Below, piece after piece: positions 7,872 through 54,253 of a stretch of 64,000 nucleotides of DNA (position 1 is the first letter of the stretch; each line of letters opens with the position of its first letter). The DNA is taken from positions 20,555 to 84,554 of the forward strand of contig CAYVQZ010000002.1 in the NCBI GenBank assembly GCA_964453435.1. Reading direction: 5' to 3'. The stretch comes from an uncultured bacterium (lineage in GTDB: Bacteria > Abyssobacteria > SURF-5). Under the pieces are notes generated by a model, which worked only from the letters and a program-made list of their open reading frames with translations, had not been told where the DNA came from and ran no database searches. A program made the position numbers and the translations under genes.

Positions 7872-8030
7872 GACTGTCCCACCATTGTCCAGCGAAGGGG
7901 ACGGTCCCAGATTTACGGGCACGAAGTGCCGTAGAATCGGGACTGTCCCCGAAGCGACCCGCGTTCCTTCGCTGAGCAAAGCGAAGTCCCGCCAAAGGCG
8001 GGATAGATTGGCGGACTGCCCCCGAAGCGT
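7872..8030. repeat. dispersed intergenic repeat, family 1 (GATTTACGG...AATCGGGACTGTCCCCGAAGCG...AGATTGGCGGACTGCCCCCGAAGCG), copy A
   Basis: Shares blocks with 22500-22693 and 40915-41045. The 25-mer AGATTGGCGGACTGCCCCCGAAGCG at 8005-8029 is identical to 40975-40999. It also holds an inverted copy of the core (CGAAGGGGACGGTCCC). Confidence 0.6.
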
Positions 8031-8074
8031 ACACTGATCAATCGTGGAATACACTCTCTGGGGTGCTTCGGAAA

Positions 8075-8503
8075 CTATGAAAGCAGGTGTCGCCGGTTGC
8101 GCCAAATATAGATAATCGTGAACGGCCCAAGAGTCAAACATGCTGTGGAGATGATAAGGTTTTCTACAAACGCGTGGGAGAATTCCGTGAAAAATCCCTG
8201 CTGAATCGCATACAGGGTGTCCATCAACCCGAGGAAAATGATTGCGCTTCCCGCCAGCAGACCGAAGAGCAGACCCCAGGGCCGTTGACGTATGATGCCG
8301 ATTGCGCCGATTATGGCGCAGAGGCTCATATACACGTCCGCGACGGTAAAGGACTGTTCATGTTCTATGTAAGCCCTGTCGTCCGAGACTGCCACCGTCC
8401 CCGACGTATAGAACTCGAGCCAGAACGCCACCGTAAGTGCGGCGAAGATGATGAGAATGACGGCCAGAACCACAAGGCCTCTCGGTCTGGGTGGACCCTG
8501 CAT
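8075..8503 (-). CDS. small integral membrane protein (4 TM), function unknown
   Basis: 142 aa with four hydrophobic helices. It is flanked by a family-1 repeat on the left and a family-2 repeat on the right. Confidence 0.5.
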   Translation of the reverse strand: MQGPPRPRGLVVLAVILIIFAALTVAFWLEFYTSGTVAVSDDRAYIEHEQSFTVADVYMSLCAIIGAIGIIRQRPWGLLFGLLAGSAIIFLGLMDTLYAIQQGFFTEFSHAFVENLIISTACLTLGPFTIIYIWRNRRHLLS

Positions 8504-8939
8504 ATTTTTGTCTCCTCCGGGTGCATGAATGCCGACCGATGCGAAATCTCAACGCTCATGTCTTGTGTTCCAATCTTGCTGTGGTGATTTTTTCAAACCG
8601 GAAGCAGGCTTCCCTCTATCCGATGTCGTTCCCGCAACGGCCTGCTCAATCAAGCTGGCGCAGACTCGCATCCGTGCTCCCTTTTCAGCATACCCAATGT
8701 CAAGATAATCATAAAAGAAGAAGTGTATGAATGCAAGTGGGCTTATGCCGATTCGATGGCTTTGTTAGCGGGACGGAGGGTAGAGATACATGCGGCAGGG
8801 AGTCCTCTGCGAAGGTTTTGTGGTGATATACTAATTTTGGGGACTGACAGACAGCGAGGCGGCAGCGAATAGCTGATGGTTGATTTTCATGTTACAATCT
8901 GATATAGAAAGTAACACAGCACGGCGGAGCCGCAACCAA

Positions 8940-8973
8940 CGGTTATTGAGCAATGCATGGCGTCCCCAATAAC
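8940..8973 (+). repeat. dispersed intergenic repeat, family 2 (GGTTATTG-N19-CAATAACC hairpin containing CATGGCGTCCCCAATAACC), copy 1
   Basis: GGTTATTGAGCAATGCATGGCGTCCCCAATAACC has an 8-bp inverted-repeat stem. Its core matches 37517-37549, 45503-45530 and, in reverse orientation, 40832-40877. Confidence 0.55.
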
Positions 8974-9056
8974 CCTGAAAATACGAGCGAAGCAGCATGG
9001 AACATCACGACAAGAATTCATGAATTTGGCGCTTGGTAATATAAGGGTGTTGGATC

Positions 9057-9953
9057 ATGAACAGGCTCCATGGTTCGCCAAAAGGGTTTACGCTTGTTGA
9101 GCTGCTCGTGGTGATTGCTATCATCGGAATCCTTGCCGCTTTCTTGCTTCCGGCCCTCAGCAAGGCGCGCGAGGCTGCGCGACGCTCCGCCTGCGCAAAT
9201 AACCTGAGGCAGCTCGGGCTTGCGCTGGGCCTGTATGCGTCTGAGAACAGAACGAAATATCCCCCCGTCGAGAACGTGAGTAATAAGTTCATGTTCGATG
9301 CGGGTGGAATGTATCCGGAATATCTCTCCGATGCGTCTATTCTCGCTTGTCCTTCCGACCCCGAATACGACCCAAAAACCAACTTTCGCTTGAAGGCGGA
9401 TGCGATAGTGAGGGAGAACGTTTACGGAGCGCAGACACGGCAATTCAAAGGCGGAACAGTACATCCGGACTGCATTGGACCCGTGAGTTACATATATCTC
9501 GGCTGGCTGGTAATGAATGACAGGGAGCTTCTCTCGGGGGCCGCGATATACACGTGGATGGACTTCGTGCTTCCGATCAGCCACTGGGCAACCGACGGAT
9601 GGCGGGACCGCGAAAGAAACATAGCGTCCTTTGGATTCGCCGGCTCCGGGAATGCCGGAGGTAACCTGCACAGGCGGCTGTCCGAGGATGTTGACAGGTT
9701 CCTTCTTTCTGACATCAATCACGTTCTCAGCAGTGCGAGTTCGGGCGCTAGCAGGGTGCCGGTTATGTGGGACCAACTGTCAACCCACATCAGCGATTTC
9801 AGCCATCTTCCCGCCAGCCAAAATGTATTGTACCTTGACGGGCACGTGGAGCACAAACGCTACGACGACGTGACAACAGAGTTCCCGATTTCTCCACTGT
9901 ATGCGGCTTTTAATGGCGGAGCGAGCTATCGAACGTCGGATTACTGTCATTGA
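9057..9953 (+). CDS. DUF1559 / H-X9-DG family protein with type IV pilin-like N-terminal cleavage/methylation domain
   Basis: N-terminus [56 protein letters not shown] is the prepilin N-methylation motif plus the conserved DUF1559 helix. The C-terminus has H...YLDGHVEH, an H-X9-DG-like motif. Confidence 0.8.
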
Positions 9954-10068
9954 AGGCGCATTGGAAAGAGGAAAAGACGCAAAGCGGTCGCGACAATGTG
10001 CGCCACGTGTCGTCGAAAAACGTTAAGGTAGAGAATCGTTCCGGAGCTACCCGATTGCCTCGGTTTTC

Positions 10069-10896
10069 TCACAGCCCTCTTTCTCTTCTTACTTTGTCCA
10101 CAGTCTTATCCAGAAACCGGTTTACGAGCGAGGGCGCAAGCCTGTTGGCCAGGTTGAACATTTTCCCCGGAAGATTCGGAATGATGATGAAACGACCTTT
10201 CTCCATTCCGTGAATGGCTTCTTTTGCCACTTCCTCCGGCTTCATTAGTTTGGCGCCTTCGGAAATCCTGAGTGTCTCAAGAGGCTTCGCCTTGTTCTCG
10301 TTTTCAAACATCGGGGTATCGACGTCCGGCGGACAGAGCACCGAAACGCCGATTTTGTAGGGACGCAGTTCGCTTCTCAGCGCTTCCGAGAAGCCGACGA
10401 CTGCAAATTTGGAGCCGGAGTAACTCGTATATCCGAAGATGCCTTTCAGACCGCCCAGGCTCGATACATTAAGAATCCACCCCGTCCGTCGTTCAATCAT
10501 TCCGTTGATGACCTGCTTTATCGTGTACACCGTGCCGAGGTAGTTGACTTTCAGCTCGGTCTCCATTGATTCGATGGAAAGGTTTTCCACGTACCCCGGA
10601 TTCACGTAGCCGGCGCAATTTACGAGCATCTGAGTCGGGCCGCAGGCGATTTCGGCCTCCCGTATCGCATTTTCCACAGCCGTAAAATCGGCGACGTCAG
10701 CGGCGCAGCATCCGAACCGTTGTCCGGAGCTTTTGGCGTTTCTTCTAACCTCATCCAAGGCTTCCTTCAAGACATCGTTTCGCCTGGCGATCAGGAAGAC
10801 GTTCGCCTGCCGTTGGGCGAATTCTTTGGCGAGGCACTTCCCGATTCCGCTTGAGCCCCCCGTCACGATGGCGCACTTGTTTGCGAGATTCATCAT
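10069..10896 (-). CDS. short-chain dehydrogenase/reductase, 3-ketodihydrosphingosine reductase (KDSR)-like subfamily
   Basis: 275 aa with TGGSSGIGK, NCAG, YSGSKFA and the segment PPDVDTPMFENENKAKPLETLRISEG, which closely resembles the KDSR motif PPDTDTPGF..ENRTKPLETRLISE. It is a tandem paralog of 11015-11839. Confidence 0.75.
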   Translation of the reverse strand: MMNLANKCAIVTGGSSGIGKCLAKEFAQRQANVFLIARRNDVLKEALDEVRRNAKSSGQRFGCCAADVADFTAVENAIREAEIACGPTQMLVNCAGYVNPGYVENLSIESMETELKVNYLGTVYTIKQVINGMIERRTGWILNVSSLGGLKGIFGYTSYSGSKFAVVGFSEALRSELRPYKIGVSVLCPPDVDTPMFENENKAKPLETLRISEGAKLMKPEEVAKEAIHGMEKGRFIIIPNLPGKMFNLANRLAPSLVNRFLDKTVDKVRRERGL

Positions 10897-11014
10897 TTTT
10901 CATGATTCCGTTGCGACAGTGTATTTTCCTCACGCTTACCCATTGTACCGAGAAATGCCAGCGTGGCGACGCGGTAGCCTATTACGGAATCCCCTCTCTG
11001 TTCACTTGACCGAA

Positions 11015-11839
11015 TCACGCGTCCCGCTCTCTTCGCACCTTGTCGACGGTCTTGTCGATGTACTTGTTGATCAGTGAGGGGGCCAGGCGATTCCCGATAT
11101 GAAGCAGCTTTCCCGCCAGGTTCGGGATGATAAAGAACGAGCCTTTTTCCAGACCCTTTATTGCGGCGCGCGCCACGTCATCCGCATGCATCAGCTTTGC
11201 CGTGTCGGAGATTCTCAGCGTTTCTGGCGGCTTTTCGCGGGTGTCGTTCCTCACCCGTTCCGTGTCGACATCGGGCGGACAAAGAACCGAAACGTGTATT
11301 CCGTGAGGGCGGAGCTCACTGCGGAGGGCTTCCGAGAACCCGATCAGGGCGAATTTCGCTCCCGAATATCCCGCGTAACCGAAAACTCCCTTCAGGCCCG
11401 CGAGACTCGAGATATTCATGATCCATCCCTCACGTCGTTGCATCATGCCCTCGATTACCTGCTTGCAGGTATACACGGTCCCGAGGTAATTCACGCGTAT
11501 CTCTGTTTCGATGTCGGAGATTGGGAGTTTCTCGATGTAGCCACCCAACGAGAAACCGGCCGAGTTGATGAGCAAGGCGGGCGGACCGCATTCTGCTTCG
11601 GCTGCCCGCATGGCCTCCTGCACGGCGGGCAGCTCCGACACGTCGCAGCGGTAATAGCCAAATCTCTGCCTGCTGCTCGAAGCCAGGTGGCGAAAATCGT
11701 CAATCGCCTTCCGGAGAGGAGCCTCTTCTCGCGCCATGATGAAGACATGCGCGCCGCGCCGGGCCAACAGGTCCGCTATGGCCTTTCCGATACCCTTGGA
11801 GCCGCCGGATACGATTGCACATTTGCCGGCTATGTTCAC
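11015..11839 (-). CDS. short-chain dehydrogenase/reductase, KDSR-like subfamily (paralog of 10069-10896)
   Basis: 274 aa, about 55-60% identical by eye to the neighbouring SDR (SGGSKGIGK...NSAG...YSGAKFA...PPDVDTERVRNDTREKPPETLRISD). Confidence 0.75.
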   Translation of the reverse strand: MNIAGKCAIVSGGSKGIGKAIADLLARRGAHVFIMAREEAPLRKAIDDFRHLASSSRQRFGYYRCDVSELPAVQEAMRAAEAECGPPALLINSAGFSLGGYIEKLPISDIETEIRVNYLGTVYTCKQVIEGMMQRREGWIMNISSLAGLKGVFGYAGYSGAKFALIGFSEALRSELRPHGIHVSVLCPPDVDTERVRNDTREKPPETLRISDTAKLMHADDVARAAIKGLEKGSFFIIPNLAGKLLHIGNRLAPSLINKYIDKTVDKVRRERDA

Positions 11840-11872
11840 TTTTCTTCTCCCGGCTGGAAATTGTGAACCACA

Positions 11873-12862
11873 CTATCTGTCCAACCATTGGCCGATGCCT
11901 GATTCGAGCGCCGAATCATAAAGCTTTTTTGCGACAGCTGCATCCTCGACAGCCAGCCCGAGATGCATTGACATAATTCGTTCGTCCGCCGTGTCTCGTC
12001 CGGTCTTCGTCGAACACACGACCTCGGATAAGTCAGCATACAATTCCGAAAACACACCGAAGTATCCCTGCTGCCGATAAAAGCGGAACTGCGGGACATC
12101 GTCAGTGAGAATTTTGTCGAATTCTTCTAATGCGCTGCGGCTCCAGTATGTGTCGAAGTCTACTGGACTCGCGAAGGCGCCTGCTTTGACCCAGCCTGCC
12201 TCTATAGCAGGCTCGGGAACCTTCTTGATCGGTCCCGCGGTGACAATGATGTCCGCCTCGACGATTGTCTCACGAGGGGAGCCGCATTTTTGAAATTGCA
12301 GTTTCGGAAACGTCTCTGACATCTCCGCAACGTATGTTTCGAGCACCTGCGGAGAAATGTCATATGCCATGACGGAATTAAGCGAGGGGAATGCTGCTGT
12401 CATCGCTTCCAGGTGTGAGCGACCCTGTACACCGCAGCCAATAATCGTCAATGTCTGCGGATTGGAATTTGCAAGGTGTTTCGCGGCAACCGCCGAAGCG
12501 GCGGCAGTCCGCATGGCCGTGATCCACGTCGCATCCATAACGGCCAGCGGCATGCCGGTTTCCGGGTCGTTCAAGATAAGAAGGCCGCTGATGTATGGCA
12601 GGGACCTCATCGGATTCTGCGGATAGCCGCTCACCCATTTGAGCGCCGCCGCCTGCAAGGAAGGCACATACGCCGGCATCGCATGAATGAAAGAATCCGG
12701 AAGGGGGTGAATTCCGGGCTTTGGCGGCATTTCAACATTGCCCGCGCCCTTCTCTCGGAAAACCTGCTCCACGACATCCATTATCCGGGTTATCCCGAGA
12801 CCCGTCCGGACAACATCATCTTTCGAAAGATAAAGGATTGGGGATAGATTCTTCTTCGACAT
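11873..12862 (-). CDS. ornithine cyclodeaminase / mu-crystallin family NAD(P)-dependent enzyme
   Basis: 329 aa with a Rossmann GxGxxG (IIGCGVQGRSHL) and OCD-family N-terminal and catalytic segments. It is co-oriented with, and 33 bp upstream of, the two KDSR-like SDRs. Confidence 0.75.
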   Translation of the reverse strand: MSKKNLSPILYLSKDDVVRTGLGITRIMDVVEQVFREKGAGNVEMPPKPGIHPLPDSFIHAMPAYVPSLQAAALKWVSGYPQNPMRSLPYISGLLILNDPETGMPLAVMDATWITAMRTAAASAVAAKHLANSNPQTLTIIGCGVQGRSHLEAMTAAFPSLNSVMAYDISPQVLETYVAEMSETFPKLQFQKCGSPRETIVEADIIVTAGPIKKVPEPAIEAGWVKAGAFASPVDFDTYWSRSALEEFDKILTDDVPQFRFYRQQGYFGVFSELYADLSEVVCSTKTGRDTADERIMSMHLGLAVEDAAVAKKLYDSALESGIGQWLDR

Positions 12863-13006
12863 TCGCTTCTCCGGGGGGTTTCTCAGTTTCGAAATGATAT
12901 CAACACCCGGAAAGGAATGTCAATCGGGCGTTGGGTTCAGCTTGTTTCTTATAGTTTCTATCAGGCACTGGGAATTATACACGGGCGACCGTGGTCAGAC
13001 GGTTCC

Positions 13007-13035
13007 TTGAACCCCCCTTCATGTCATGATATAAT
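13007..13035 (+). promoter_or_regulatory. sigma70-type promoter TTGAAC-17-TATAAT upstream of tlyA
   Basis: TTGAAC at 13007-13012, a 17-bp spacer, and TATAAT at 13030-13035, about 30 bp upstream of the tlyA start. Confidence 0.4.
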
Positions 13036-13064
13036 TTGCGAGAAAGGTCGGTTCGTCCGGAAAT

Positions 13065-13835: not shown

Positions 13836-13842
13836 GGCCATA

Positions 13843-22458: not shown

Positions 22459-22499
22459 GGGTGCACATTTAACCGAAAGATGGGCATAGGAAAACCCGC

Positions 22500-22693
22500 C
22501 CCGGATTTACGGACCAAGCTTGTCGAGGTCGTACAATCGGGACTGAGTCCGTCCGATAATTCAATACGTGGTCGTTTGGCCAGGGGACAGTCCCCTTCGG
22601 GACAGTTTCACTGTCCCCTGAACAGAGAACCTCCATACGAAATTATCGGACAGTCTCCTTGTCCCCGAAGCGCGGATTGCCCAATCGCGGGTC
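22500..22693. repeat. dispersed intergenic repeat, family 1, copy B (contains GGGACAGTttcACTGTCCC hairpin and GTCCCCGAAGCGCGGATTGCC)
   Basis: Shares GATTTACGG...AATCGGGACTG with copy A and AATTATCGGA plus the CCCCGAAGCG core with copy C. It sits in the 270-bp gap between the SGNH-like and sulfatase-like genes of the same operon. Confidence 0.55.
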
Positions 22694-22728
22694 AGATACG
22701 TTTCCGTGATCCCTCTCTGCAAACCGAT

Positions 22729-23892
22729 TCAATTTCCACTCGGCGCTTCTTGCTGTCCTGATTTGTTTTTGAGCAGCGCCGCCACCACGGGAGCGAGCTT
22801 CTCGACAACCTTTCTGCCACCTTCCGGCGTGTAATGCTCAAGCCTGTCCCGAAACTCTTCCGGCTCGAGAAGGTCAAGCAGGTCGAGGAATACGCCGCCA
22901 TTCGAGGATACGATTTCTCGCATGCGCCTGATATTGTTTTTATAGAGTTTATCATCATACAGGCCGTGTTTCTTCAGTTCTTCGATGTTAATCGGTGTGA
23001 CGTATGCCACGAACGGTATCCCGGACCTTTTGAGGCTATCCGCCAATGCTTTGAGTGTGAGCATTTCCGTGTGGTCGGTGGGAATCTCGGCAGGGCATAG
23101 GCCCGACAGAATTTCAGGAGTGAGTTCCAGCTGGCGAAGCATTACGACGACCTGGTGTCCTTTTGTCCGCCTGACCGCGCCTTGCCGCGCCCATCTGACT
23201 TCGATAGAATCATTTCTGCGAAGCAATTGGATGAAAACATCCCTGACCCGGATTTTGACTCCCCGCACATAATACGTTTCCCAGAACTCGGCTTTCAACT
23301 TCAAGCGGTCGCCAAGGCTGAAATTTTCGATCTTGGCCGGACTGTCAATCCCCTCGCTCAGGCTTTCCTTGAACGGCGCAAAAAAGATAAGCTCGCGTCC
23401 CTGGATTGCGCCGTTCTCATCGCGCATGTCTTTCTGTCCTTGCCATCCAAAACGGCGGTAGTTGATGTTGAAGATTACGAGAGCAGGCGAGTATTCCCTC
23501 GCTTTGCAGGTAAGGCAATAGTAGTGAAACAGGGAGGCCCTGCCGAAGGCCCAGTCGATTATCTTTACGGAGGTCTCGCCGTATTCGTCCGCCAGTTTCT
23601 CTTGCAGAACCATGGGTGGGGCCACATCATTACCCAATAAAGCCACTGTTGAATCACCAAAATAGAATATGCGCTTCTCGCTATCCGGCACAAGACGAGG
23701 CAACTGATGGATAGACAATAATACTTCGTTATACGGTTTGCCCAGCCCGAGGTATAGCAACGCCGTTCTCATTCCAATGCTGCACAGAAGAATCAGGTAT
23801 ATCGTGGCAATTGAAAGCAGGTAGAAGAAAAGAGTGCGCCCGGGGTTGAAGCCGACTCTTTGCATCGGGTTCGGGTTGTTCTTTGCCAACAT
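22729..23892 (-). CDS. membrane-anchored SGNH/GDSL-like hydrolase-fold protein (probable MBOAT partner, AlgJ/AlgX/PatB-like)
   Basis: 387 aa with an N-terminal TM helix, a block-I IFYFGDSTV (GDS), and a conserved FHYYC segment. It is paralogous to 30048-31133 (VIFFGDSSL...FHYYC...EHYSLEGRK) and lies 8 bp downstream of the MBOAT gene. Confidence 0.6.
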   Translation of the reverse strand: MLAKNNPNPMQRVGFNPGRTLFFYLLSIATIYLILLCSIGMRTALLYLGLGKPYNEVLLSIHQLPRLVPDSEKRIFYFGDSTVALLGNDVAPPMVLQEKLADEYGETSVKIIDWAFGRASLFHYYCLTCKAREYSPALVIFNINYRRFGWQGQKDMRDENGAIQGRELIFFAPFKESLSEGIDSPAKIENFSLGDRLKLKAEFWETYYVRGVKIRVRDVFIQLLRRNDSIEVRWARQGAVRRTKGHQVVVMLRQLELTPEILSGLCPAEIPTDHTEMLTLKALADSLKRSGIPFVAYVTPINIEELKKHGLYDDKLYKNNIRRMREIVSSNGGVFLDLLDLLEPEEFRDRLEHYTPEGGRKVVEKLAPVVAALLKNKSGQQEAPSGN

Positions 23893-31133: not shown

Positions 31134-31633
31134 TGCCGGCCCATGCCCCTCGGAAAGGGGGATTTATCGACGGGGCGAAGACTGGGGCTATGCAGGACCG
31201 AATGCATTTTCTTTTGTCTCCGAAGACGCCTTTAACGCAAAAATCCAGAAAAGAATCGGGCCTGTATTCTTTCTTGCTGTAAGTTCTCCCTGGTCCTCTT
31301 CGTCCGATTCACGCGTAAATAGATGCCTAGCCGCAAGATTCGGTCATTCTGATTCCGGAGAAAACTCTCCTCCTGCGCCTCGTGCTCCAGCTTATCCACG
31401 TATTCGTTTGCCTGCTGCCGAATTCTCTGGTGTTTCAGTTCCCCCCGAAACTAATTCCAGGCTCAACATCATGATGAAATAGCGCGGAACGCCGTTCTTA
31501 CACCTTGCCCGTTTCCCGGCAACATCGTACCATACGCTTATTGGCTAAGGCAAGGAATAACAAGAAGATTCGCAATCCATCCTGCCCTTTTACCACGGAG
31601 GACACTGCGCGGTGTAACCGCAACCAAACTACA

Positions 31634-31925
31634 CAGGGAGACCACGAATTACACAAATTACACGAATGAAAGTTCTCTTCTTTTCATTCCCGCGAAAGCA
31701 GGAGTCCAGGAAAAGATTTCTTGAGCCGCAAAGGCTTGAAGGGCGCAATGGAAGGCAGAAAGAAAATTGACCACGGGGAGGGTGGCGTGACACGGGGAAA
31801 GGCCGTGAAGATTAGCAACGGATTACACAGCGCGGCACAGCCGCACCCAAAAACCAAAGAAACTCCCGGAACACGAAAGACACAAATCGTGCGAATGTCA
31901 CGAATGAATAGTTCTTTCTTGGTGA
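31634..31925. repeat. direct repeats ACACGAATGAA(A/T)AGTTCT(C/T)TTCTT about 240 bp apart, plus TTACAC-N3-TTACAC, in a 983-bp divergent intergenic region
   Basis: CACGAATTACACAAATTACACGAATGAAAGTTCTCTTCTTTTCATTC at about 31634-31682 contains the hairpin GAATGAAAG...CTTTTCATTC. A second copy, GTCACGAATGAATAGTTCTTTCTTGG, is at about 31895-31925. Confidence 0.45.
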
Positions 31926-32116
31926 TTCTCGCTGGCTGACTCCCGAAGCAGTATTTTGATACAAATCGGCGAGTGATATATACTGGGAAGACAAGAATAT
32001 GCTTTTGCTGAATTTTCATGCCGCGAAGCCCTCTTGGGGAGAGGTCTCACATGCCCGTGCTCTTTATGGGTTATACCGACATACGCTCTTTCACGAGGGT
32101 CGCATTATGAGGCTTC

Positions 32117-35137: not shown

Positions 35138-36592
35138 ATGCGCAGATTATCCGTTCTGTTGATTTTCACATCGTGTATCCTGCTGCTTTTCTCCACATCC
35201 CCGGCGCAGACGAAATTCGTTTCCGTTATCACGATAAACGATGACATCATTAACCCGGTTGCCGCCGAGTATATCTCTCAGGCCATCCGCGACGCGAAGC
35301 AGAACGGTGCGGAATGCCTCATCCTCCAACTTGACACGCCGGGCGGGCTGCTCACCTCGACTCGTAAAATCATCAAGGAACTGCTGAATTCCGATGTGCC
35401 GGTGGTTGTCTATGTCGCCCCGAGCGGCGCGCGCGCGGCTTCGGCGGGCATGTTCATAACGCTTGCGGCAAACATCGCCGCGATGGCGCCCTCGACCAAT
35501 ATCGGGGCCGCTCACCCGGTCGATCTCGGCGGCGAGGGCGGAGAATCGTGGCGCGAAGCGATCAAAGGTCTCGAGGAAAAGATGAAGGAGATTGAGCAGC
35601 AGCAAAAGCGGAGGCGTCCGGCGGAAGAGGCCGAAGAAGACAAAGAGGGGACCGCCCCCGAAAAGGAGACCGGGGAAAGCGAGGAAGAGGAATCGTCTAC
35701 CGGTTCGACAATGGGTGACAAGGTGTTAAAGGATACGATAGCGTGGACCCGCGGTATCGCGCGCCTGCGGGGCCGAAACGAGGAATGGGCGGTCGAGGCG
35801 GTCACCAGGAGCGTCTCGATAACCGAGACGGAAGCGCTCGAGAAAAACGTCATTGACTTCATAAGCAAGGATATCGAAGAACTGCTCGAGCAGATAGACG
35901 GGACAGAGGTGACATTGCCCGATGGGCCGGTGACCCTGCGCACCGGCGAGGCTCGCATCGAATATCACGAAATGGATATGCGCCAGCGCATCCTGAACGC
36001 GATCTCGCATCCGAATATCGCGTATATCCTGATGATGCTGGGTTTCTTTGGCCTGCTCTTCGAGGTCACCCATCCCGGCATAGGCTTTCCCGGCATCGCG
36101 GGCGCCATCTGCCTCATCCTCGCCTTTTACTCCTTCCAGGCGCTGCCGGTCGATTACGCGGGAGTCGCGCTCATTGCCCTCGCCATTGTCCTCTTTATCG
36201 CGGAGGCGAAGGTGGCCAGTTACGGGTTGCTGACCGTGGGCGGACTCGTGTGCATGACGCTGGGCTCGATGATGCTGATCGATACGCCGTATGAATTTCT
36301 GAGGGTCTCGAACACGGTGATTTTCCCCGTCGTATTCACGACCGCCGCCCTTGTGGTGTTTCTCGTCACGCTCGTGGTGCGGGCGCACTCCCGCAAGAGC
36401 ATTACCGGTTTGGATGGCCTCGTCGGGGTTGTCGGAACGGCGGAAACGGACATATCGCCGGAAGGCAAAATCTTCATCCACGGCGAACTCTGGAATGCCC
36501 GCAGTGCGGATTCGATTCGGAAGGGAGAGAAAGTAAGGGTGGTTGCGGCCGACGGCATGATGCTGACTGTCGAAAGCGTTTCACAGGAGTGA
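35138..36592 (+). CDS. NfeD-like membrane-bound serine protease (ClpP-fold) with C-terminal OB-fold domain
   Basis: 484 aa with a signal/TM N-terminus and a ClpP-class protease domain (LQLDTPGGL...GARAASAGMFITLAANIAAMAP) interrupted by an acidic/Lys-rich insert of about 45 aa (EKMKEIEQQQKRRRPAEEAEEDKEG...ESEEEESS). It also has multi-TM helices and a C-terminal OB-fold (IFIHGELWNARSAD...VRVV). Confidence 0.8.
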   Translation: MRRLSVLLIFTSCILLLFSTSPAQTKFVSVITINDDIINPVAAEYISQAIRDAKQNGAECLILQLDTPGGLLTSTRKIIKELLNSDVPVVVYVAPSGARAASAGMFITLAANIAAMAPSTNIGAAHPVDLGGEGGESWREAIKGLEEKMKEIEQQQKRRRPAEEAEEDKEGTAPEKETGESEEEESSTGSTMGDKVLKDTIAWTRGIARLRGRNEEWAVEAVTRSVSITETEALEKNVIDFISKDIEELLEQIDGTEVTLPDGPVTLRTGEARIEYHEMDMRQRILNAISHPNIAYILMMLGFFGLLFEVTHPGIGFPGIAGAICLILAFYSFQALPVDYAGVALIALAIVLFIAEAKVASYGLLTVGGLVCMTLGSMMLIDTPYEFLRVSNTVIFPVVFTTAALVVFLVTLVVRAHSRKSITGLDGLVGVVGTAETDISPEGKIFIHGELWNARSADSIRKGEKVRVVAADGMMLTVESVSQE

Positions 36593-36651
36593 CACTCGAA
36601 GGATAGAGACCGAATGGCGGACACAGGAACTGACCAAGGAGGATTTAGAAA

Positions 36652-37434
36652 ATGCAAGTGCCGGTAATCGTCGTGCTCATTATCGTCCTGTACTTCATCA
36701 GTTGTGTTCGCGTGCTGAACGAATACGAGCGGGGAGTCGTGTTTAGGCTCGGGCGGGTTCTGTCGGGACCGAAGGGGCCGGGTCTGATATTGGTATTCTG
36801 GCCGATCGACCGCATGGTGCGTGTCAGCCTGCGGCTCATCGCGCTGGATGTACCCCCGCAGGACATCATCACGCGCGACAACGTCTCGGTGAAAGTGAAT
36901 GCGGTGGCGTACTTCAGGGTCATGGAGCCGAGCAAGTCCGTCATCGAGGTGGAGAATTTCCTGTTTGCGACTTCACAGATGGCCCAGACCACGTTGCGAA
37001 GCGTGCTCGGCAGGTCCGATCTCGACGAGCTTTTATCCGAACGCGACAAGATCAATCAAGAGCTTCAGGACATTCTTGACCGGCAAACCGACCCGTGGGG
37101 TATCAAGGTTTCGAACGTCGAAGTCAAACACGTGGACCTGCCGCAGGAAATGCAGCGCGCCATCGCGCGCCAGGCGGTCGCCGAACGAGAACGGCGAGCC
37201 AAGGTAATCAACGCCGAGGGCGAGTTCCAGGCGGCGGCCCGGCTTGTTGACGCCGCCAAGATGATGGAACACCATCCCATGGCGCTGCAGATGCGGTTCC
37301 TTCAGACACTGGTGGAAGTCGCATCGGAGAAGAGTTCGACGATGGTGCTTCCGCTTCCGCTCGACCTGTTCCGCCCATTCTTTGAGGCCAACCTGAGGAA
37401 AGAGCAACAGCAACAGGAGCCAAAGCAAGAGTAG
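36652..37434 (+). CDS. SPFH/band 7 (stomatin-like) protein
   Basis: 260 aa: [14 protein letters not shown]...GPGL...[34 protein letters not shown] is the canonical stomatin/PHB domain. It is the known operon partner of NfeD. Confidence 0.85.
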
Positions 37435-37440
37435 CAGACA

Positions 37441-37549
37441 GCGAATCTGTCCCGCGATTGCCCGGCGAAGGGGGCTGTCAGCGCGTCCCACGATTTATGA
37501 TTTCGGCTTAATTGGTGGACACCATGCGGCATGGTGTCCCCCAATAACC
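37441..37549 (+). repeat. dispersed intergenic repeat, family 2, copy 2 (GAATCTGTCCCGCGATTGCCCGGCGAAGGGG...GGACACCATGCgGCATGGTGTCCCCCAATAACC)
   Basis: Contains the 11-bp inverted repeat GGACACCATGC/GCATGGTGTCC and the shared core GTCCCCCAATAACC. Its 5' block GTCC(C/T)GCGATTGC..GCGAAGGGG is shared with the reverse-oriented copy at 40832-40877. Confidence 0.55.
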
Positions 37550-37866
37550 CGCATCGCCGGCCGTGGGAGAGGTTCACAGTGCCCGGCAGTTCGGTTGGTT
37601 GAATCCTGAGACATGCTCGGAATAGCGTTCGATAGCTCGTGCCTGTGTATCCCGCCCATGTTCCCACCGTTTCATCGTTTCAATATTGCCGGATTGGGGC
37701 TCGCGCATCGCGGCGGCGCAAGGCACTACTGTGGGGCGGAGCGCGTTGCGGGAGCGATTGACTTTCATTTAAGACGTTTGTTAATATTGAGGCGTAGAAC
37801 GGTTCTTGCCAGTTTCCTCTGTGTCTGCCCTCGTCAAATCGCACAATAAAGTGGGGGGAGTGTGTT

Positions 37867-40825: not shown

Positions 40826-40831
40826 GAGAAT

Positions 40832-40877
40832 GAATCCTGTCCTGCGATTGCATAGCGAAGGGGTTATTGGGGGACAC
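40832..40877 (-). repeat. dispersed intergenic repeat, family 2, copy 3 (reverse orientation)
   Basis: The reverse complement gives GAGCGTGTCCCCCAATAACCCCTTCGCTATGCAATCGCAGGACAGGATTC. It directly abuts a family-1 copy at 40915-41045. Confidence 0.5.
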
Positions 40878-40914
40878 GCTCACTGTGAATCTGCCCGACA
40901 ATTATGAATGTCAG

Positions 40915-41045
40915 CGAAACGAAGCGCGGGGGCTGTACCCAATTACGGAACCCCCCGTATTTTGGGGATTCGTAGATTGGCGGACTGCCCCCGAAGCGCA
41001 GGACATGGAATTATCGGAGGGACTCACTGTTCCCGATGGGGAACT
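40915..41045. repeat. dispersed intergenic repeat, family 1, copy C
   Basis: AATTACGGAACCCCCCGTATTTTGGGGATTCGTAGATTGGCGGACTGCCCCCGAAGCGCAGG...AATTATCGGAGGGACTCACTGTTCCCGATGGGGAAC. It shares an exact 25-mer with copy A and AATTATCGGA with copy B. Confidence 0.55.
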
Positions 41046-41114
41046 CTTCTGGCGAGCCCTGAAACAGATTCATGATTCCTTACCGGTAAATGGGACCAGC
41101 TTGACCTCTTCGTT

Positions 41115-45387: not shown

Positions 45388-45486
45388 GGGAAAGCTTTTC
45401 AAAACCTTGTTGTCACACATCTCCCATGTCTTAATTGGGGGGAATTCCGACGGAGTTCCCCCCATCTGTTTTGCGGTTGGTGACGC

Positions 45487-45530
45487 GGGTTATCGGGAGG
45501 AGCCATGCCGCATGGTGTCCCCAATAAACC
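45487..45530 (+). repeat. dispersed intergenic repeat, family 2, copy 4 (GGGTTATCGGG...CCATGCCGCATGGTGTCCCCAATAAACC)
   Basis: Shares the CATGGTGTCCCCAATAA(A)CC core with the copies at 8940, 37517 and 40832. It lies between the cytochrome c and EncFtn-like genes. Confidence 0.5.
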
Positions 45531-45751
45531 CTGGCCGTGAGCGCCGATTTAACAAACCCGTCTTGCGCACTTCTTTCCCGCAATGTTATGATTCTATTGG
45601 TCTCTGGTGAAGTCTCTTTGGTTTGTACGAGCATGGAAAAGGGGCAGACATCCGCATTTTTTGATTTTCGGATTCGCTCCGTTGACGATTCCTTTGGACA
45701 ACTTGACGCCGGTTTGACCACTGGTGAAACCGAAAGCAAGGAGGACTGGCT

Positions 45752-47407: not shown

Positions 47408-47477
47408 CCCTCCCGCTGCGAGTCAAATCTTTCCGAAACGGTTATATGCCGGCGAACAAGCTCCGGAGGTAACCTCG

Positions 47478-47921: not shown

Positions 47922-47948
47922 AGCGCTTTCCCCGGAACGGACGAAACG

Positions 47949-48386: not shown

Positions 48387-48521
48387 ATTCGTGTCGGCCC
48401 CGCTTTCATGGTTCCGAAACGAGAACCCCCCGCAGACGTTTTTGGATAATGCGCCGCCTTGATATAATACTGCCGATACTATCTTGCCGTTTTTTCCCCA
48501 AATGAACAGCGAGGAGAGGTC

Positions 48522-50057: not shown

Positions 50058-50064
50058 GAAATCT

Positions 50065-50826
50065 TCAGGTCAGCGACCCGCCGTCGATATTAATAATAGC
50101 TCCCGTCACATAGCTTGCGGCGTCCGACGCGAGAAATATCGCCAGTCCGACAATCTCATCCGGGGTGGCGAGCCGGCCGAGCGGTATGTCGCGAACCACT
50201 TCGGCGTACATCTCGGGACTGCTCCAAATCGCTTCGCTGAATTTGGTTTCCACCATTCCCGGCGAGATTGCGTTCACGCGGATACCCACTCCGGCGAGTT
50301 CCTTTGCGAGAGCCTTCGTCAGCATGTCCACGCCGGCTTTGCTCACGCTGTACGCCCCCAACAGGGGAGCGGCCCGTTGGCCGGCGGTTGACGAAATATT
50401 GATAATCGCGCCCCTGCCCTGGGACATCATTATACGACCGACCGCCTGACAAAAGAGGAACTGACTCTTCAAGTTCGTGGTGACGATTTTGTCCCAGCCG
50501 TCTTCCCGCAGGTTCATTAAGGGCGACATGATGTTACGGGCCACATTGTTCACGAGAATATCTATGCGACCGAACTTCTCGTGGGCCTCGGACACGAAGC
50601 GGTCGATGTCCTCCTTTTTGCTGACATCCGCCGCCAAAGCGAAAGCCTTTCTGCCCAACTTCTCGATTTCTGATGCCACCGGCTCCAAATCCTCCAGCTT
50701 TCTGCTGCAGATTGCCACATCGGCGCCCGCATCAGCGAATCCGAGAGCTATGGCTTTCCCGATCCCGCGGCTCGCTCCGGTCACGATTGTCTTTTTCCCC
50801 TTCAGGGCAAATTGCTCGATCGACAT
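50065..50826 (-). CDS. short-chain dehydrogenase/reductase (FabG-like 3-oxoacyl reductase)
   Basis: 253 aa with TGASRGIGKAIA, NNVA, the catalytic S...YSVSKAG, and PGMVETK. Confidence 0.8.
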   Translation of the reverse strand: MSIEQFALKGKKTIVTGASRGIGKAIALGFADAGADVAICSRKLEDLEPVASEIEKLGRKAFALAADVSKKEDIDRFVSEAHEKFGRIDILVNNVARNIMSPLMNLREDGWDKIVTTNLKSQFLFCQAVGRIMMSQGRGAIINISSTAGQRAAPLLGAYSVSKAGVDMLTKALAKELAGVGIRVNAISPGMVETKFSEAIWSSPEMYAEVVRDIPLGRLATPDEIVGLAIFLASDAASYVTGAIINIDGGSLT

Positions 50827-50949
50827 GAAAAACGCTCCTTCTCGCGACAGTTCCGTTTATCTACCAGCGGTTTCCAAATCATATCACCCCGCAAGTTCCT
50901 TGTCAATTGGGCGAAACCGCAGGTTGGAGAGTCAATGAAGCCCGAAAAC

Positions 50950-52290
50950 TTATGGTCTCTTCACGAACTCGCCGTGGCCTTTTTTGCCGACAACGGCTCC
51001 GTCGAGAAACACCGTTTCCCCCCGAACCATCGTACGTTGCGGAAAGCAGGCGGCCAGGCCTTTGAACGGTGTCCACTCTGAGCCAATCAGCGCGTCTTCA
51101 TCGATTGGTCGCTCATTACTCAAGTCGTAGATTGCGAAATCCGCGTCCGCTCCCACTCTGCATGCGCCTTTCCTCGGAAAGAGTCCACACAGTCGGGCAG
51201 GGCCTTCTGCGGTGACTTCGACGAGCCTCTGCAGAGTTATCCGCTTCGGTTTCACTCCGTTGCTTATCAATAACGGCACGAGTGTCTGGATTCCCGGCGC
51301 TCCCGCGGGCGTCTCCCATATGTCCGGGGTTTCTTTCTGGACCCGCTCATAGGGGCAGTGGTCGGAGGCGACATTATCGACCTCGCCTGCCGCGACCCTT
51401 TCCCATAGGGTTTCAATATTCTGCCGTGTGCGGAGCGGGGGCGCAATTTTGGCGAAACCGCCTTGGCGCTCCAATTCTTTTTCCTCGAGCACCAGGTAAT
51501 GAGGACATGTTTCAACGGTGACGCTCTGACCGGCTTTCCTCGCCGCGTCAACCATTTTTACTCCGCTCGCGAGGCTGCAATGGAAAATATGGAGCGGGAC
51601 GCCGGCATGCGCGGCAAGAAAAAGCGCGCGGTGGATCGCCTCCAGTTCCGTGATGGGAGGGTGTGATTCTATAAACGCCATTCCGTCCGTTCGCCCTTTT
51701 GTTTTCAATGATTCTTCAAGGTGCGCGATCATGTCATTGTTCTCGGCGTGGACGCCCACCGGCAAACCGGTTTCTCGCACCAGTTGAAGAGCGTCGAGAA
51801 GAAGCCCGTCATGCAGGTGCGGCAGCATCGAGACGCTTGACTGCATAAAGAACTTATAGCCGACGATTCCCGATCCCGCCAGGTCGGAAATCGTCGAGAG
51901 GTCGAACGCCAGGGCCGTTCCCCACAAAGCGAAATCGACGTATGCCTTTGGAGAAATTGATTCTAATTTTATCTGCAAGGTGTCGCGATTGAATGTTGCC
52001 GGCATTTGGAATGGCATGTCCACGATGGTAGTAACACCGCCGGCGGCAGCGGCCTGACTCGCCGTATCGAAACCGATCGTATCGGAAGGTCCGGGATCGA
52101 CTGAATGACAGTGAGTGTCAACCGCTCCGGGCAGGATAACCTTGCCTGTCGCGTCGACGGTCTCGCTTGCCTCGCCAAGGTGGCCCGGCAAACCGGCTGC
52201 CGCAATTTTCCCCTCGCTGACGCCGATATCTCGGGGCGCCACTTCTTCCGATGTGGCCAAGAGCCCGTTGATGATTTTCAATTCGAACAT
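50950..52290 (-). CDS. cyclic amidohydrolase (dihydroorotase/allantoinase/dihydropyrimidinase-like), amidohydrolase superfamily
   Basis: 446 aa with the N-terminal metal-binding DTHCH, the internal HAEN/HIFHCS histidines, and a C-terminal Asp, matching the Amidohydro_1 fold. Confidence 0.7.
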   Translation of the reverse strand: MFELKIINGLLATSEEVAPRDIGVSEGKIAAAGLPGHLGEASETVDATGKVILPGAVDTHCHSVDPGPSDTIGFDTASQAAAAGGVTTIVDMPFQMPATFNRDTLQIKLESISPKAYVDFALWGTALAFDLSTISDLAGSGIVGYKFFMQSSVSMLPHLHDGLLLDALQLVRETGLPVGVHAENNDMIAHLEESLKTKGRTDGMAFIESHPPITELEAIHRALFLAAHAGVPLHIFHCSLASGVKMVDAARKAGQSVTVETCPHYLVLEEKELERQGGFAKIAPPLRTRQNIETLWERVAAGEVDNVASDHCPYERVQKETPDIWETPAGAPGIQTLVPLLISNGVKPKRITLQRLVEVTAEGPARLCGLFPRKGACRVGADADFAIYDLSNERPIDEDALIGSEWTPFKGLAACFPQRTMVRGETVFLDGAVVGKKGHGEFVKRP

Positions 52291-52480
52291 TGTGATGCCT
52301 CCTCATGTTGATTTGAAGATTTCCGGGTTTGCGCCACGGTGAGACCGATTCACACTCCCACTGCGCGGAAAGAGGGGCGATTGCATAATTGGCTGCGCCG
52401 TTCCCGTATGCTTTCTTCGCGGAGCGGATACCCTTTCCCCGAAATGCGCGTCAATGAATTGCCGGAACGCCACGGTGTCC

Positions 52481-53902
52481 CTAATATTTTCCCTCTTGAG
52501 TCAGTCGAAACTGTGTCGTGTTTCTTTTTCGAACAAGGGCATCGGCGGCCTCGGACAACTCCTCGGCCGCTCGCTGGGCAAACGCCAGCGATTCCCGTTC
52601 GTCAAAGGTCAGAAGCGTGCCATTTTCATGTACCACCTTACCGTCGATAATCGACATCGAGACCTCTGTCCCGTTTGCCGAGAGCACGAGATTGGGCACA
52701 ATGTTTCTGACCGGCCTTCTGAGGACAGGGGTCATCGTGGGTCGGTCCAAGTCCACCAATATGATATCCGCTTTCTTGCCGGTTTCGAGGGAGCCTATTT
52801 CGTTTCCGAGTCCGATTGCCCGCGCCCCTTCAATCGTTGCCATGCGCAGAACCTTCCAGGCGGGCATCTCGGTCAAATCCCGTCTTTTCATCTTTAAGAG
52901 CAGGCAGGCCGTCTTCAGTTCAAGGAAGATGTTGGCGCCATTGTTGGTGCAGGTCTCATCTGTGCCGAGACATACGTTGCCGCCCGCCCTGCTGAAGACA
53001 TCCGCCGGAGAAGCGATGCCGTCGCACAGAACCTGGCTTGAAGGACAGAAGGCCATCGAGGCTCCCGACCGGGCAACCTCTTTTACCTCTTCCTCGGCGC
53101 ATCTGCTCATGTGAACGGCGAGCAGTCTTTCGCCGAGATAGCCGATTTCCTTCAGGAATTCCACGGGCCGCTTACGATACCGTTTCTTAATTTGGATAAG
53201 TTCCACTTCGCTCTGTGCGACATGATGATGGAGTTTCACGCCGTATCTCTCGGCACATTCGCGGATTCGCACGAGAAGTTCTTTGCTGCAGTAGTCGGGC
53301 CCCTGCGGACCGAGCATGGCCGTAATGCGACCGTTGCCCGCTCCGTTCCACTTCTCAATCAGTTCGAGGTTTTCCATGAGGCGGAATTCGCCAATGGAAG
53401 GCTCGAACGGGTAGAGCTCGTTCGGTCCGAGTTCGCTCTCGATTGGAGGAACTTCGCTGATAAGACCGCTCAGAGCCGCGCGCACCCCGATTTTTTCGTA
53501 GAAGGGAGCTACAAATGAGATGCCCGGGCCGTAATCCCCAAACGTGGTTGTGCCCGAACGCAAAGCTTCCGCTGCGACAAGTTGCGCGCCCGCATGAATG
53601 GCGTCTGCGGTAAGATTGTTGAAATAGGGGTCCACTCCCTCGTGCCACGTCGGCGCATCCTGCGCAAGGCCTCTCGACAGCGCAATCACAGTGTGCATGT
53701 GGCCGTCGATAAAACCCGGCAGAACGGCTTTCATTCGGGCATCGACCATTCGCTCCGCCGTGAATTCACGCTCCAGGGCGGCCGTGGGTCCGACAGCCTT
53801 GATGCTGGCGCCGTCGACCGCGACGGCGCCGTCCTCGATGTAACCCACTCCGTCACCGGTCATCGTGAACACATCACCGTGGACGATAAGCATGTCGATC
53901 AT
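52481..53902 (-). CDS. amidohydrolase-superfamily deaminase/chlorohydrolase-like protein (MtaD/SsnA/guanine-deaminase family)
   Basis: 473 aa with the N-terminal PGFIDGHMHT, the internal HHHVAQSE, and HMS/CP...D, typical of the aminohydrolase subgroup. Confidence 0.7.
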   Translation of the reverse strand: MIDMLIVHGDVFTMTGDGVGYIEDGAVAVDGASIKAVGPTAALEREFTAERMVDARMKAVLPGFIDGHMHTVIALSRGLAQDAPTWHEGVDPYFNNLTADAIHAGAQLVAAEALRSGTTTFGDYGPGISFVAPFYEKIGVRAALSGLISEVPPIESELGPNELYPFEPSIGEFRLMENLELIEKWNGAGNGRITAMLGPQGPDYCSKELLVRIRECAERYGVKLHHHVAQSEVELIQIKKRYRKRPVEFLKEIGYLGERLLAVHMSRCAEEEVKEVARSGASMAFCPSSQVLCDGIASPADVFSRAGGNVCLGTDETCTNNGANIFLELKTACLLLKMKRRDLTEMPAWKVLRMATIEGARAIGLGNEIGSLETGKKADIILVDLDRPTMTPVLRRPVRNIVPNLVLSANGTEVSMSIIDGKVVHENGTLLTFDERESLAFAQRAAEELSEAADALVRKRNTTQFRLTQEGKY

Positions 53903-54253
53903 GTCCCGCTTCTCCGCAGATTGTTCTGAATGGAACCACTCGTTCGGATCGGATAATTCAGCATCCTATAATAAACCCGACTCGAAATCAACGCCGAGCA
54001 TCCTACACACCGACGCATGCAGGGCAAAGCGGCGCGCATTTGGCGCCCCCGAAGCGTGGGTAGTGAGGGTAAAGCTTCATGAGGGAGAATATGAGCGCGG
54101 TTGCCGGTGATTCGTTGACACTGTCACGTGGCGACTATTATGATGATTCTCCAGTGAGAGAAGCCACGAACGAGGAGTCACGATTGTTTCTCGGAACGGG
54201 CTGAGAGACAGCTCTATAAATCCTTCAGCTCTTGGGAAAGGAGTCAGCCGAAA

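Follow-up and report, generated by a model that had tools for sequence, protein, structure and literature searches.

Organization of the repeats

The window, which is the whole 64,000-nt stretch of DNA analyzed here, carries a set of short repeats in its intergenic regions. The host has genes for DUF1559/N-methyl proteins and for sulfatases; among named organisms, its proteins matched Ca. Abyssubacteria and Poribacteria best. An earlier note on this DNA had described two families of dispersed repeats, and every sequence block quoted there was recovered in place. The gene map of the window bore out the statement that all copies are intergenic. One copy (B) was said to lie inside an operon gap, and it was located in a 270-nt gap whose flanking genes are both on the minus strand. 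The reported abutting of a family-2 copy and a family-1 copy corresponded to C1 and C2, which stand in tandem at 40826–41031. Related pieces at 59221–59305 and 7222–7310 were found beyond the set noted earlier. The elements were as follows.

7222–7310, plus strand: additional related hairpin, arms GAAATTCCGGGGACAYGGA, inverted repeat 95% complementary
7866–8060, plus strand: element A, a 195-nt composite between convergent genes
7866–7890, plus strand: 5′ terminus of A
7891–7956, plus strand: inner hairpin of A, an inverted doublet of the REP-like unit
7966–7986 and 7987–8003, plus strand: small hairpins of A
8004–8029, plus strand: second core copy of A (26-mer)
8030–8060, plus strand: 3′ terminus of A
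8936–8980, plus strand: element E, a piece of family 2 (GGTTATTG..GCATGGCGTCCCCAATAACC) within a divergent promoter region
22498–22705, plus strand: element B, a family-1 unit without the 5′ module, between two minus-strand genes
37438–37584, plus strand: element D, with 5′ module, GATTTAYG block, palindrome and 3′ end, starting 4 nt past the Band_7 stop codon
40826–40886, plus strand: element C1, 5′ module, family-2 element and 3′ end GGGACACGCTCACTGT, directly after the HGD-D stop codon
40882–41031, plus strand: element C2, a complete family-1 copy standing in tandem with C1, with 5′ module, inverted doublet hairpin with the 26-mer core, and 3′ end
45460–45550, plus strand: element F, a degenerate 5′ module and imperfect family-2 hairpin after an intrinsic terminator (45436–45464)
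54036–54058, plus strand: doubtful fragment containing GCCCCCGAAGCGT
59221–59305, strand unassigned: degenerate mosaic between convergent genes, weak matches

The family-1 copies shared GATTTACGG (7910 and 22504), AATCGGGACTG (7935 and 22535) and ATTATCGGA (22642 and 41010, with an inverted copy at 22552), and the hairpin GGGACAGTttcACTGTCCC was located at 22599–22617. The exact 25-mer reported for copies A and C proved to be a 26-mer, TAGATTGGCGGACTGCCCCCGAAGCG, common to 8004–8029 and 40973–40998 (blastn E = 1e-9 in 7.5 kb of intergenic DNA). The family-2 core was present at 8955, 37529 and 45510, with an inverted copy at 40861. In D, this core was a near-perfect palindrome of 42 nt (37508–37549). 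The family-2 part of C1 displayed an internal deletion between two GGGACAC repeats. Element B contained a 114-nt palindromic insert (22546–22659) with the terminal inverted repeat AGTCCGTCCGATAATT, inserted at the bar inside a GGGACTG|TCCCC palindrome, and at the 3′ end of B (22676–22700) the 5′ module recurred in inverted form.

The arms of the hairpin at 7222–7310 resembled the family-2 arm AATTGGTGGACAC and the sister-strain sequence at the D locus, a relatedness judged by eye only. The mosaic at 59221–59305 comprised an inverted core-like piece (59221–59242), the 5′-module-like CTGTTTCGCGGTTG and CCCAATTGCGGAATCCC, all as weak matches. The fragment at 54036–54058, also listed earlier, did contain a 13-nt match (E = 0.035), but its membership is doubtful and the motif was not kept in the sister strain.

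Different intergenic regions shared 28 exact 13-mers, compared with 0.99 ± 1.2 (maximum 5) in 200 shuffles, and 35 12-mers, compared with 4.6. The sequence GTCCCCAATAACC was matched seven times with at most two mismatches, where 1.0 was expected. Chance as the source of the shared blocks was thereby excluded.

Shared architecture and folding

Both families belong, as subtypes, to a single set, and their building blocks are variants of a common unit, (A)ATTSG-N-GGGAC. The repeats described earlier are real; their independence as two families did not hold, because the 5′ module (ACAGCGAATCTGTCCCGCGATTG..GCGAAGGGG), the 3′ end (CAAYCGYGGGACAS..TCACWGT) and the unit variants were common to both. 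The 5′ module and 3′ end formed an imperfect terminal inverted repeat of ~23 nt. The 5′ end matched the reverse complement of the 3′ end at ~15–17 of 23 positions in D and C2 and at 13 of 16 in A, and the pattern CCGTGGGASASNNTCACWGT was matched four times against 0.17 expected. Between copies, the common blocks were 12–36 nt long and occurred in mosaic order, with no full-length homology.

The basic unit, ~26 nt in length, was CCGTAR-AWTSK-GGGACNGTCCCC followed by GAAGCG. Its copies were located on both strands at 7891–7920, 7927–7956, 8000–8029, 40925–40950 and 40969–40998 by an nhmmer profile, which was built from those same five copies and is not an independent test; the profile found no further copies below an E-value of ~0.3. 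The family-1 core was one arm of an inverted doublet of this REP-like unit. The variant unit TTATTGG-GGGACAC-CATGC, as an inverted doublet, made up the family-2 palindrome. The arms of the family-1 doublet were conserved and the spacer hairpin was variable. Three compensatory pairs were counted among three copies of the consensus hairpin, and the composite elements were all co-oriented in a window of mostly positive GC skew; with only ~8 loci, both the covariation and the orientation statistics are weak. The tetranucleotides GTAG (7930 and 40972), ATAG (8003) and GTAC (22530) were found 4–5 nt 5′ of a small palindrome.

The whole elements A, D and C2 and the insert of B were predicted to form long hairpins (z from −3.5 to −5.5), and the inner hairpins folded as single-stranded DNA with z from −4.2 to −5.5. 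The RNA fold of A paired its termini (z = −5.3), and its inner hairpin reached z = −5.5 as ssDNA. The termini were also paired in D (z = −3.5 for the whole element, −4.2 for the palindrome). C2 gave z = −4.15 as a whole and −4.4 for its inverted doublet (40925–40998) as ssDNA, and the B insert gave −5.1 as RNA and −4.5 as DNA. The values for the hairpin at 7222–7310 (ssDNA) and for E were −5.2 and −2.3, respectively. The fold of F was no better than its shuffles (z ≈ 0).

Variation between strains and assembly breaks

A sister strain, 92–98% identical, differed at several of these loci. C2 was missing there; its flanks in the window carry CTCACTGT as a direct repeat, and the sister strain has a single CTCACTGT. 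C1 was retained in a longer form (..CAATAACCCGTATCAACAACCGTGGGACACGCTCACTGT), and a sister contig ended at 40856, inside the 5′ module of C1. Element D marked a gene-order breakpoint: the upstream gene differed, and homology to the sister strain began at ~37545–37546, near the 3′ end of CAATAACC. Unrelated sequence occupied the place of the E segment. F was kept with 2–3 substitutions. No elements were found in more distant relatives.

Nine of 25 Logan contig ends fell inside elements, which make up 1.4% of the window (P ≈ 4e-11), and this points to many copies. The contigs ended at 8000 (two samples), 8011 and 8069 for A, at 37526 for D and at 40981 for C2, where another started at ~40989. 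Elements coincided with contig ends in four samples. Because they vary between near-identical strains, the repeats look like ordinary selfish DNA of the REP/MITE type and not like a conserved RNA or regulatory system.

Searches for RNAs, enzymes and further copies

Rfam 15 gave no matches in the window at gathering thresholds, and at E ≤ 10 there were two irrelevant weak ones away from the elements. Neither promoter/terminator pairs nor T-tracts were detected at the elements. Terminator-like sites, with a GC-rich hairpin ahead of a T-tract, did not coincide with the repeat cores; the nearby ones were at 45436–45464, upstream of F, and a weak one on the minus strand at 8003–7987. No RAYT or other transposase was seen among the genes of ~77 kb (window and flanks). 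An insertion sequence (IS) with the ends of the elements was found neither in this available DNA nor among plasmids. Two metagenome scans with specific patterns returned no matches, nor did three viral scans or one plasmid search; a genome pattern scan was dominated by chance matches.

The single candidate for a target-site duplication was the 8-bp CTCACTGT at C2, which is explained equally by tandem elements sharing 3′ ends. No such candidate was found around A, D or the insert in B. Integron attC sites were also considered. In attC, R″/R′ core sites (RYYYAAC ... GTTRRRY) frame an imperfect palindrome. On reading, GGTTATTG/CAATAACC did not fit GTTRRRY/RYYYAAC, and the neighboring genes were not cassette-like, so this assignment was rejected.

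Comparison with known repeat systems

REP units are about 20–40 nt long. REPs and REPINs occur in tens to hundreds of copies per genome, and the gene of the RAYT, a Y1/HUH transposase, is flanked by REPs. The elements here share features with the REP/REPIN/BIME systems of Pseudomonas and E. coli, whose RAYTs are the TnpA_REP HUH transposases. Both have a short, imperfectly palindromic unit, and both arrange it as inverted doublets, with conserved arms and a less conserved spacer whose changes compensate each other, that form a long hairpin. Both lie outside genes, frequently in 3′ UTRs, occur in mosaic clusters of alternating orientation and differ between strains. Conserved arms around a varying spacer hairpin are the organization described for REPINs (PMC3116915). 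E. coli REPs carry a 5′ GTAG tetranucleotide, a guide at the hairpin foot (PMC3479197); the similar tetranucleotides here lie 4–5 nt off the palindrome, not adjacent to it, and the likeness is one of resemblance only. Unlike REP/REPIN systems, no RAYT was seen in the ~77 kb, the elements possess additional outer terminal inverted repeats, their sequence is unrelated to described REPs, and the host belongs to an uncultured lineage.

The MITEs (Correia/NEMIS, Nezha, and RUP of Streptococcus pneumoniae) are likewise non-coding, 100–200 nt long, bounded by terminal inverted repeats and able to form hairpins, with presence/absence polymorphism and nested or tandem insertion. Copies of a MITE are homologous throughout and share their ends with a parent IS; the copies here are mosaics of modules that are not alignable end to end. 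The BOX elements of Streptococcus pneumoniae (boxA-boxB-boxC) are also intergenic, with constant end modules, variable internal modules and stable secondary structure. Their sequences and host are unrelated, and their modules are longer (45–59 nt) and follow a fixed A-Bn-C order.

Origin of the repeats

This set, with its repetition, modular homology, hairpin architecture, presence and absence between strains and assembly breaks, is explained best, at about even probability, as a single superfamily, specific to this lineage, of palindromic repeats that are non-coding and non-autonomous and belong to the REP/REPIN-BIME kind. Two inverted ~26-nt units around a variable spacer hairpin make the REPIN-like long hairpin that is the family-1 core, and the same imperfect terminal inverted repeat frames both family-1 and family-2 bodies. 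The elements probably spread and were rearranged within intergenic DNA, often just past stop codons, by insertion (nested and tandem included) and by deletion between internal repeats. We infer that an HUH/RAYT-like enzyme, with its gene at another place in the genome, may mobilize them in trans as single-stranded hairpins, and that their main side effects would be mRNA 3′-end stem-loops and recombination hot spots. Several points count against this explanation: no RAYT or transposase was encoded in the ~77 kb, the scans of metagenomes, viruses and plasmids found no further copies, the statistics draw on only ~8 loci, the fold of F was at chance level, and the possible duplication CTCACTGT together with the ~23-nt inverted repeats would suit a DDE-type MITE better.

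The REP/MITE-like option of the earlier note was supported in that the elements are short, non-coding, intergenic, palindromic, mosaic, nested and strain-variable, and act as assembly breakpoints. Within that option, classical MITEs are a tentative alternative and somewhat unlikely. They would be deletion derivatives of an IS with a DDE transposase, which would recognize the ~23-nt ends ACWGYGAATCTGTCCCRCGATTG and generate a short target-site duplication. Imperfect terminal inverted repeats in A, D, C2 and the B insert agree with this, as do the sizes of 110–195 nt, the nested and tandem insertions, and the absence of C2 from the sister strain with a single CTCACTGT in place of the direct repeat. 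However, that repeat may equally come from homology between the 3′ ends of two elements in tandem. A, D and the B insert showed no target duplication, the copies share modules without full-length homology, and no IS with these ends was found in the available DNA or in plasmids. An unlikely variant of the REPIN-like explanation is that, in this little-studied lineage, the repeats are driven by an enzyme outside the known RAYTs and IS transposases, or that the host has co-opted the elements as 3′-UTR stem-loops. With such a novel enzyme, the strict co-orientation with replication direction would reflect a single-strand mechanism.

The earlier note had also offered small structured RNAs or regulatory sites. 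Small RNAs, or cis-acting 3′-UTR or attenuator elements whose hairpins are kept for RNA function, appear improbable. The predicted folds are strong, a few changes are compensatory, and A, C, D and F follow plus-strand genes in the sense orientation, two of them beginning 0–4 nt from a stop codon. However, the folds are as strong in the DNA form, B runs antisense to its operon, the elements lack promoter-terminator pairs and T-tracts, and even at E ≤ 10 Rfam gave no match to them. At orthologous sites of the 92–98% identical strain the elements are absent, replaced or rearranged, and they are missing in relatives. The regulatory proposal found no support either, given the lack of promoter/terminator pairs and of conserved sites in that strain. 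In its specific form, GGGAC-N-GTCCC palindromes would be operator arrays of a dimeric DNA-binding protein and define a regulon. We consider this the least credible possibility, although GGGACNGTCCC occurred seven times with at most one mismatch (2.1 expected) and similar doublets exist in other phyla. At A and 59.2 kb, clusters are flanked by convergent gene ends, a setting in which a promoter is unexpected. The 26-mer, although exactly conserved, carries a mutated form of the motif (GCGGACTGCCCCC), and the motif is not kept in the sister strain. A non-mobile origin, in which gene conversion or template switching has homogenized terminator-like or other hairpins across intergenic regions, is very unlikely. 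It would account for short blocks shared in a mosaic, for the C1 deletion between GGGACAC repeats and for the position of several elements at gene 3′ ends. It fits poorly with defined common termini, the presence or absence of the whole element C2 between strains, a nested insertion within the palindrome of another element, and the lack of T-tracts.

Implications

At present the repeats rank as bacterial selfish DNA of an ordinary class, and their sequence is undescribed. Repeats of this type break short-read assemblies and can alter the mRNA stability of neighboring genes, and the elements mark points of rearrangement between strains. A catalogue for the lineage would aid the finishing of MAGs and strain typing. 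If a dedicated mobilizing enzyme were found, systems of the REPIN/RAYT type would extend beyond Proteobacteria and cyanobacteria.

Genomic Setting of the Repeats

The window comes from an NCBI contig of 243,438 bp, and its genes include those for a DUF1559/N-methyl protein, sulfatases, multihaem cytochromes, sigma-54 and an acyl-CoA ligase/HGD-D operon. The best named relatives of the acyl-CoA ligase were labelled Ca. Abyssubacteria and Ca. Poribacteria. The window contained no tRNA gene and no match to Rfam, either at the gathering thresholds or at E ≤ 10, and no transposase domain was found in the ~77 kb of readable DNA (window plus flanks).

The sequence blocks quoted in the earlier note, which had described two families of intergenic repeats, were all found at the positions it gave. 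Self-blastn of all intergenic DNA of the window (37 regions, 7.5 kb) linked seven regions by blocks of 12–36 nt, and the strongest link was an exact 26-mer (8004-8029 and 40973-40998, E = 1e-9).

Intergenic regions linked by self-blastn, with the elements in them
7797-8074: element A (7866-8060), family 1
8504-9056: element E (8936-8980), family 2
22459-22728: element B (22498-22705), family 1
37435-37866: element D (37438-37584), family 2
40826-41114: C locus, elements C1 (40826-40886), family-2 type, and C2 (40882-41031), family-1 type
45388-45751: element F (45460-45550), family 2
53903-54253: weak link

Exact 13-mers common to different intergenic regions numbered 28, compared with 0.99 ± 1.2 in shuffles (n = 200), and the counts of the repeat motifs also exceeded those in shuffles. 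Two 15-kb loci of related organisms, used as a control, had repeats at chance level only. The repeats described earlier were therefore confirmed. A supposed family-1 fragment at 54036-54058 was the exception and is doubtful: it was a match of only 13 nt and was not kept in the sister strain, a close relative known from short-read (Logan) contigs.

Structure of the Elements

Both repeat types were real; their independence, however, did not hold, because a 5′ module and a 3′ end were common to both. The 5′ module, (ACAGC)GAATCTGTCCYGCGATTGnnnGCGAAGGGG, lay upstream of the family-2 core in D (37438-37474) and C1 (40832-40863), and in a diverged form upstream of the family-1 core in A (7866-7900) and C2 (40882-40930). 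The 3′ end, CAAYCGYGGGACAS..TCACWGT, was present in A, D, C1, C2 and the C locus of the sister strain, and B ended in a near-exact inverted 5′ module, CAATCGCGGGTCAGAT. Alignment of the 5′ end to the reverse complement of the element's own 3′ end gave imperfect terminal inverted repeats of ~23 nt. Read by eye, the family-1 core (AGATTGGCGGACTG, GAATCGGGACTG) and the arms that make up the family-2 palindrome (TTATTGGGGGACAC) look like versions of a single unit, ATTSG-N-GGGAC. The most fitting description of the two families is as subtypes within a single lineage-specific member of the REP/BIME/MITE kind.

An inner hairpin had the family-1 core, GGACTGYCCCC, as its 3′ arm and the 5′ module's tail (GGGGACGGTCCC in A, GGGGGCTGTACCC in C2) as its 5′ arm; thus, it was formed by a ~26-nt unit present as an inverted doublet. 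The spacer hairpin between the doublet arms varied in sequence among copies, and RNAalifold on three copies kept 20 pairs, with compensatory changes in 3 of the 20. Whole elements folded with paired termini (RNA z: A, −5.3; C2, −4.15; D, −3.5; B insert, −5.1). The ssDNA folds of the hairpins were far more stable than shuffles (z −5.5, −4.4, −4.2, and −4.5), as was a further related hairpin at 7222-7310 (z −5.2), and F was the exception (z ≈ 0). C1 and C2 were arranged in tandem, and B was a family-1 unit split within the palindrome GGGACTG/TCCCC by a 114-nt palindromic insert, the ends of which (AGTCCGTCCGATAATT) matched the 3′ end of C2.

A strong intrinsic terminator (45436-45464; a 13-bp stem followed by TCTGTTTTGC) was located 3′ of a multihaem cytochrome gene and directly before F, and its T-tract overlapped the degenerate 5′ module of F.

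Comparison with Related Strains

The Logan contigs contained the same organism in three runs and, in a fourth run, the sister strain, with DNA 92–98% identical. Downstream of the C locus, homology of the sister strain to the window started at 41023, and the preceding 31 nt, CAATAACCCGTATCAACAACCGTGGGACACGCTCACTGT, were a D-like family-2 3′ tail. The whole family-1 element C2 was thus missing there. C1 of the window was an internally deleted form of the element at this locus in the sister strain.

At the D locus, homology began at ~37545-37546, close to the 3′ end of CAATAACC. The gene upstream was not the same, a 707-aa ORF in the sister strain taking the place of Band_7. This ORF (contig L114, 185-2308) had no Pfam match and immediately preceded the acyl-CoA ligase; the window encoded NfeD and Band_7 there (35138-37434), and a more distant relative (L105) carried Band_7, then an ankyrin gene, a beta-helix gene and the ligase. 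The intergenic region upstream of the ligase is a hot spot of gene-content change.

Unrelated sequence took the place of E in the sister strain, between flanks roughly 80–95% identical, and F was kept. The sister-strain locus for B was not found because the ORF adjoining B is an orphan. This 387-aa ORF upstream of B (22729-23892, minus strand) was without a Pfam domain and had no homologue but itself at E ≤ 1e-20 in a search of 5.8 billion proteins. More distant relatives, with a ligase 82–86% identical, had none of the repeat blocks, and the region covered by another retrieved contig (L116) carried no repeats.

Contig Ends and Copy Number

Nine of the 25 Logan contig ends mapping to the window fell inside the elements, whose share of the window is 1.4% (binomial P = 4e-11); the nine lay at 8000 (twice), 8011, 8069, 37526, 40856, 40981, 40989, and ~40992. 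Assemblers break at repeated or strongly palindromic sequence, so this clustering is indirect evidence for further copies elsewhere.

The matches listed in a scan of a genome collection with GGACTGNCCCCGAAGCG were mostly chance or coding, plus an unrelated IS in a Planctomycetia MAG, the pattern being too short; the window's own genome was not among them. The 25-mer and the 5′-module pattern each had 0 matches in metagenomes, and viral scans and plasmid blastn for the repeats likewise gave 0. Nothing was found when six-frame peptides of the elements were compared with a protein database for spurious ORFs over other copies, and a literature search on the motif strings and run accessions found nothing relevant.

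Other Repeats

A long imperfect hairpin at 5275-5400 (TGTCATTCTGAG ... GAAGAATCT ... AGATTCTTC ... CTCAGAATGACA; MFE −38.9 kcal/mol) was unrelated to families 1 and 2. Logan contigs of two samples ended within it, at 5305, which suggests that it is another repeated element. A third intergenic family was found at 31590-31690, 31812-31929, and 8901-8940, with the motifs CACAGCGCGG..CCGCAACCAA..ACACGAA(T/A)..CACGAATGAA and a local alignment score of 81 vs. 29 ± 5 in shuffles. The 550-nt intergenic region that holds copies of this family also contained the contig ends 31490 (two samples) and 31865, and one copy adjoined element E. Direct repeats rich in purines (GAA/GAG/AAG) at 63250-63720, within two minus-strand ORFs that overlap (62625-63746, 63115-63879), look like low-complexity repetitive sequence, possibly coding.

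Doublets of the form GGGACTGTCCC-CGAAGC-GGGACTGTCCC were observed in MAGs of Acidobacteria, Aminicenantes and delta-proteobacteria (L026, L039, L071, L091), in L071 with a small ORF between two of them. Such doublets and related palindromes, for example GGGACGTGTCCCC, lay in non-coding DNA of unrelated phyla (L003 and L037 as well), and B carried the reverse form, GGGACAGTCCC-CTTC-GGGACAGT. The doublets were not taken as homologues since the loci had been chosen by the search pattern itself. In the Planctomycetia MAG MFD02416.bin.2.188, a sequence containing GGACTGACCCCGAAGCG was present in at least 11 near-identical copies (L031, L036, L038, L049, L053, L063, L068, L082, L092); their flanks are identical, which points to an IS or transposase gene in multiple copies, unrelated to the repeats of the window.

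Identity and Possible Mobilization

The elements were extragenic, palindromic, mosaic and turning over between strains, in agreement with the REP/MITE-like reading of the earlier note. Its other suggestions, a family of small structured RNAs or regulatory sites, were not borne out. No sigma-70-like promoter or T-tract terminator framing the elements was found, B was antisense to its operon, and the elements were not conserved between close strains, which argues against small-RNA genes, riboswitch-like leaders and operator arrays. Integron attC sites (family-2 ends do not fit the core sites), intrinsic terminators (the elements are without T-tracts) and a tRNA/tmRNA identity were also rejected.

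The favored reading, to which we give about an even chance, is that these are trans-mobilized, REPIN/BIME-like hairpin elements. They match REPINs and BIMEs (PMC3116915) in the inverted conserved arms, compensating spacer, extragenic position, mosaic clusters and strain-level turnover, and they would be mobilized in trans as hairpins. The GTAG, ATAG or GTAC located 4–5 nt upstream of their small palindrome recalls the 5′ GTAG needed by the E. coli TnpA_REP transposase (PMC3479197), a resemblance and not a test. All composite elements were co-oriented and the GC skew of the window was mostly positive, a weak statistic with only ~7 elements; co-orientation would suit a single-strand, replication-linked mechanism. 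The main rival, that they are DDE-type MITEs, draws on the outer terminal inverted repeats, and the parent IS would then end in ACWGYGAATCTGTCCC. A possible 8-bp duplication, CTCACTGT, around C2 also speaks for this rival, but it can equally be the common 3′ ends of two tandem elements. We regard a MITE origin as the less likely of the two readings.

The repeats are not a new kind of system, but they can be of use in assembly and in the analysis of strains.
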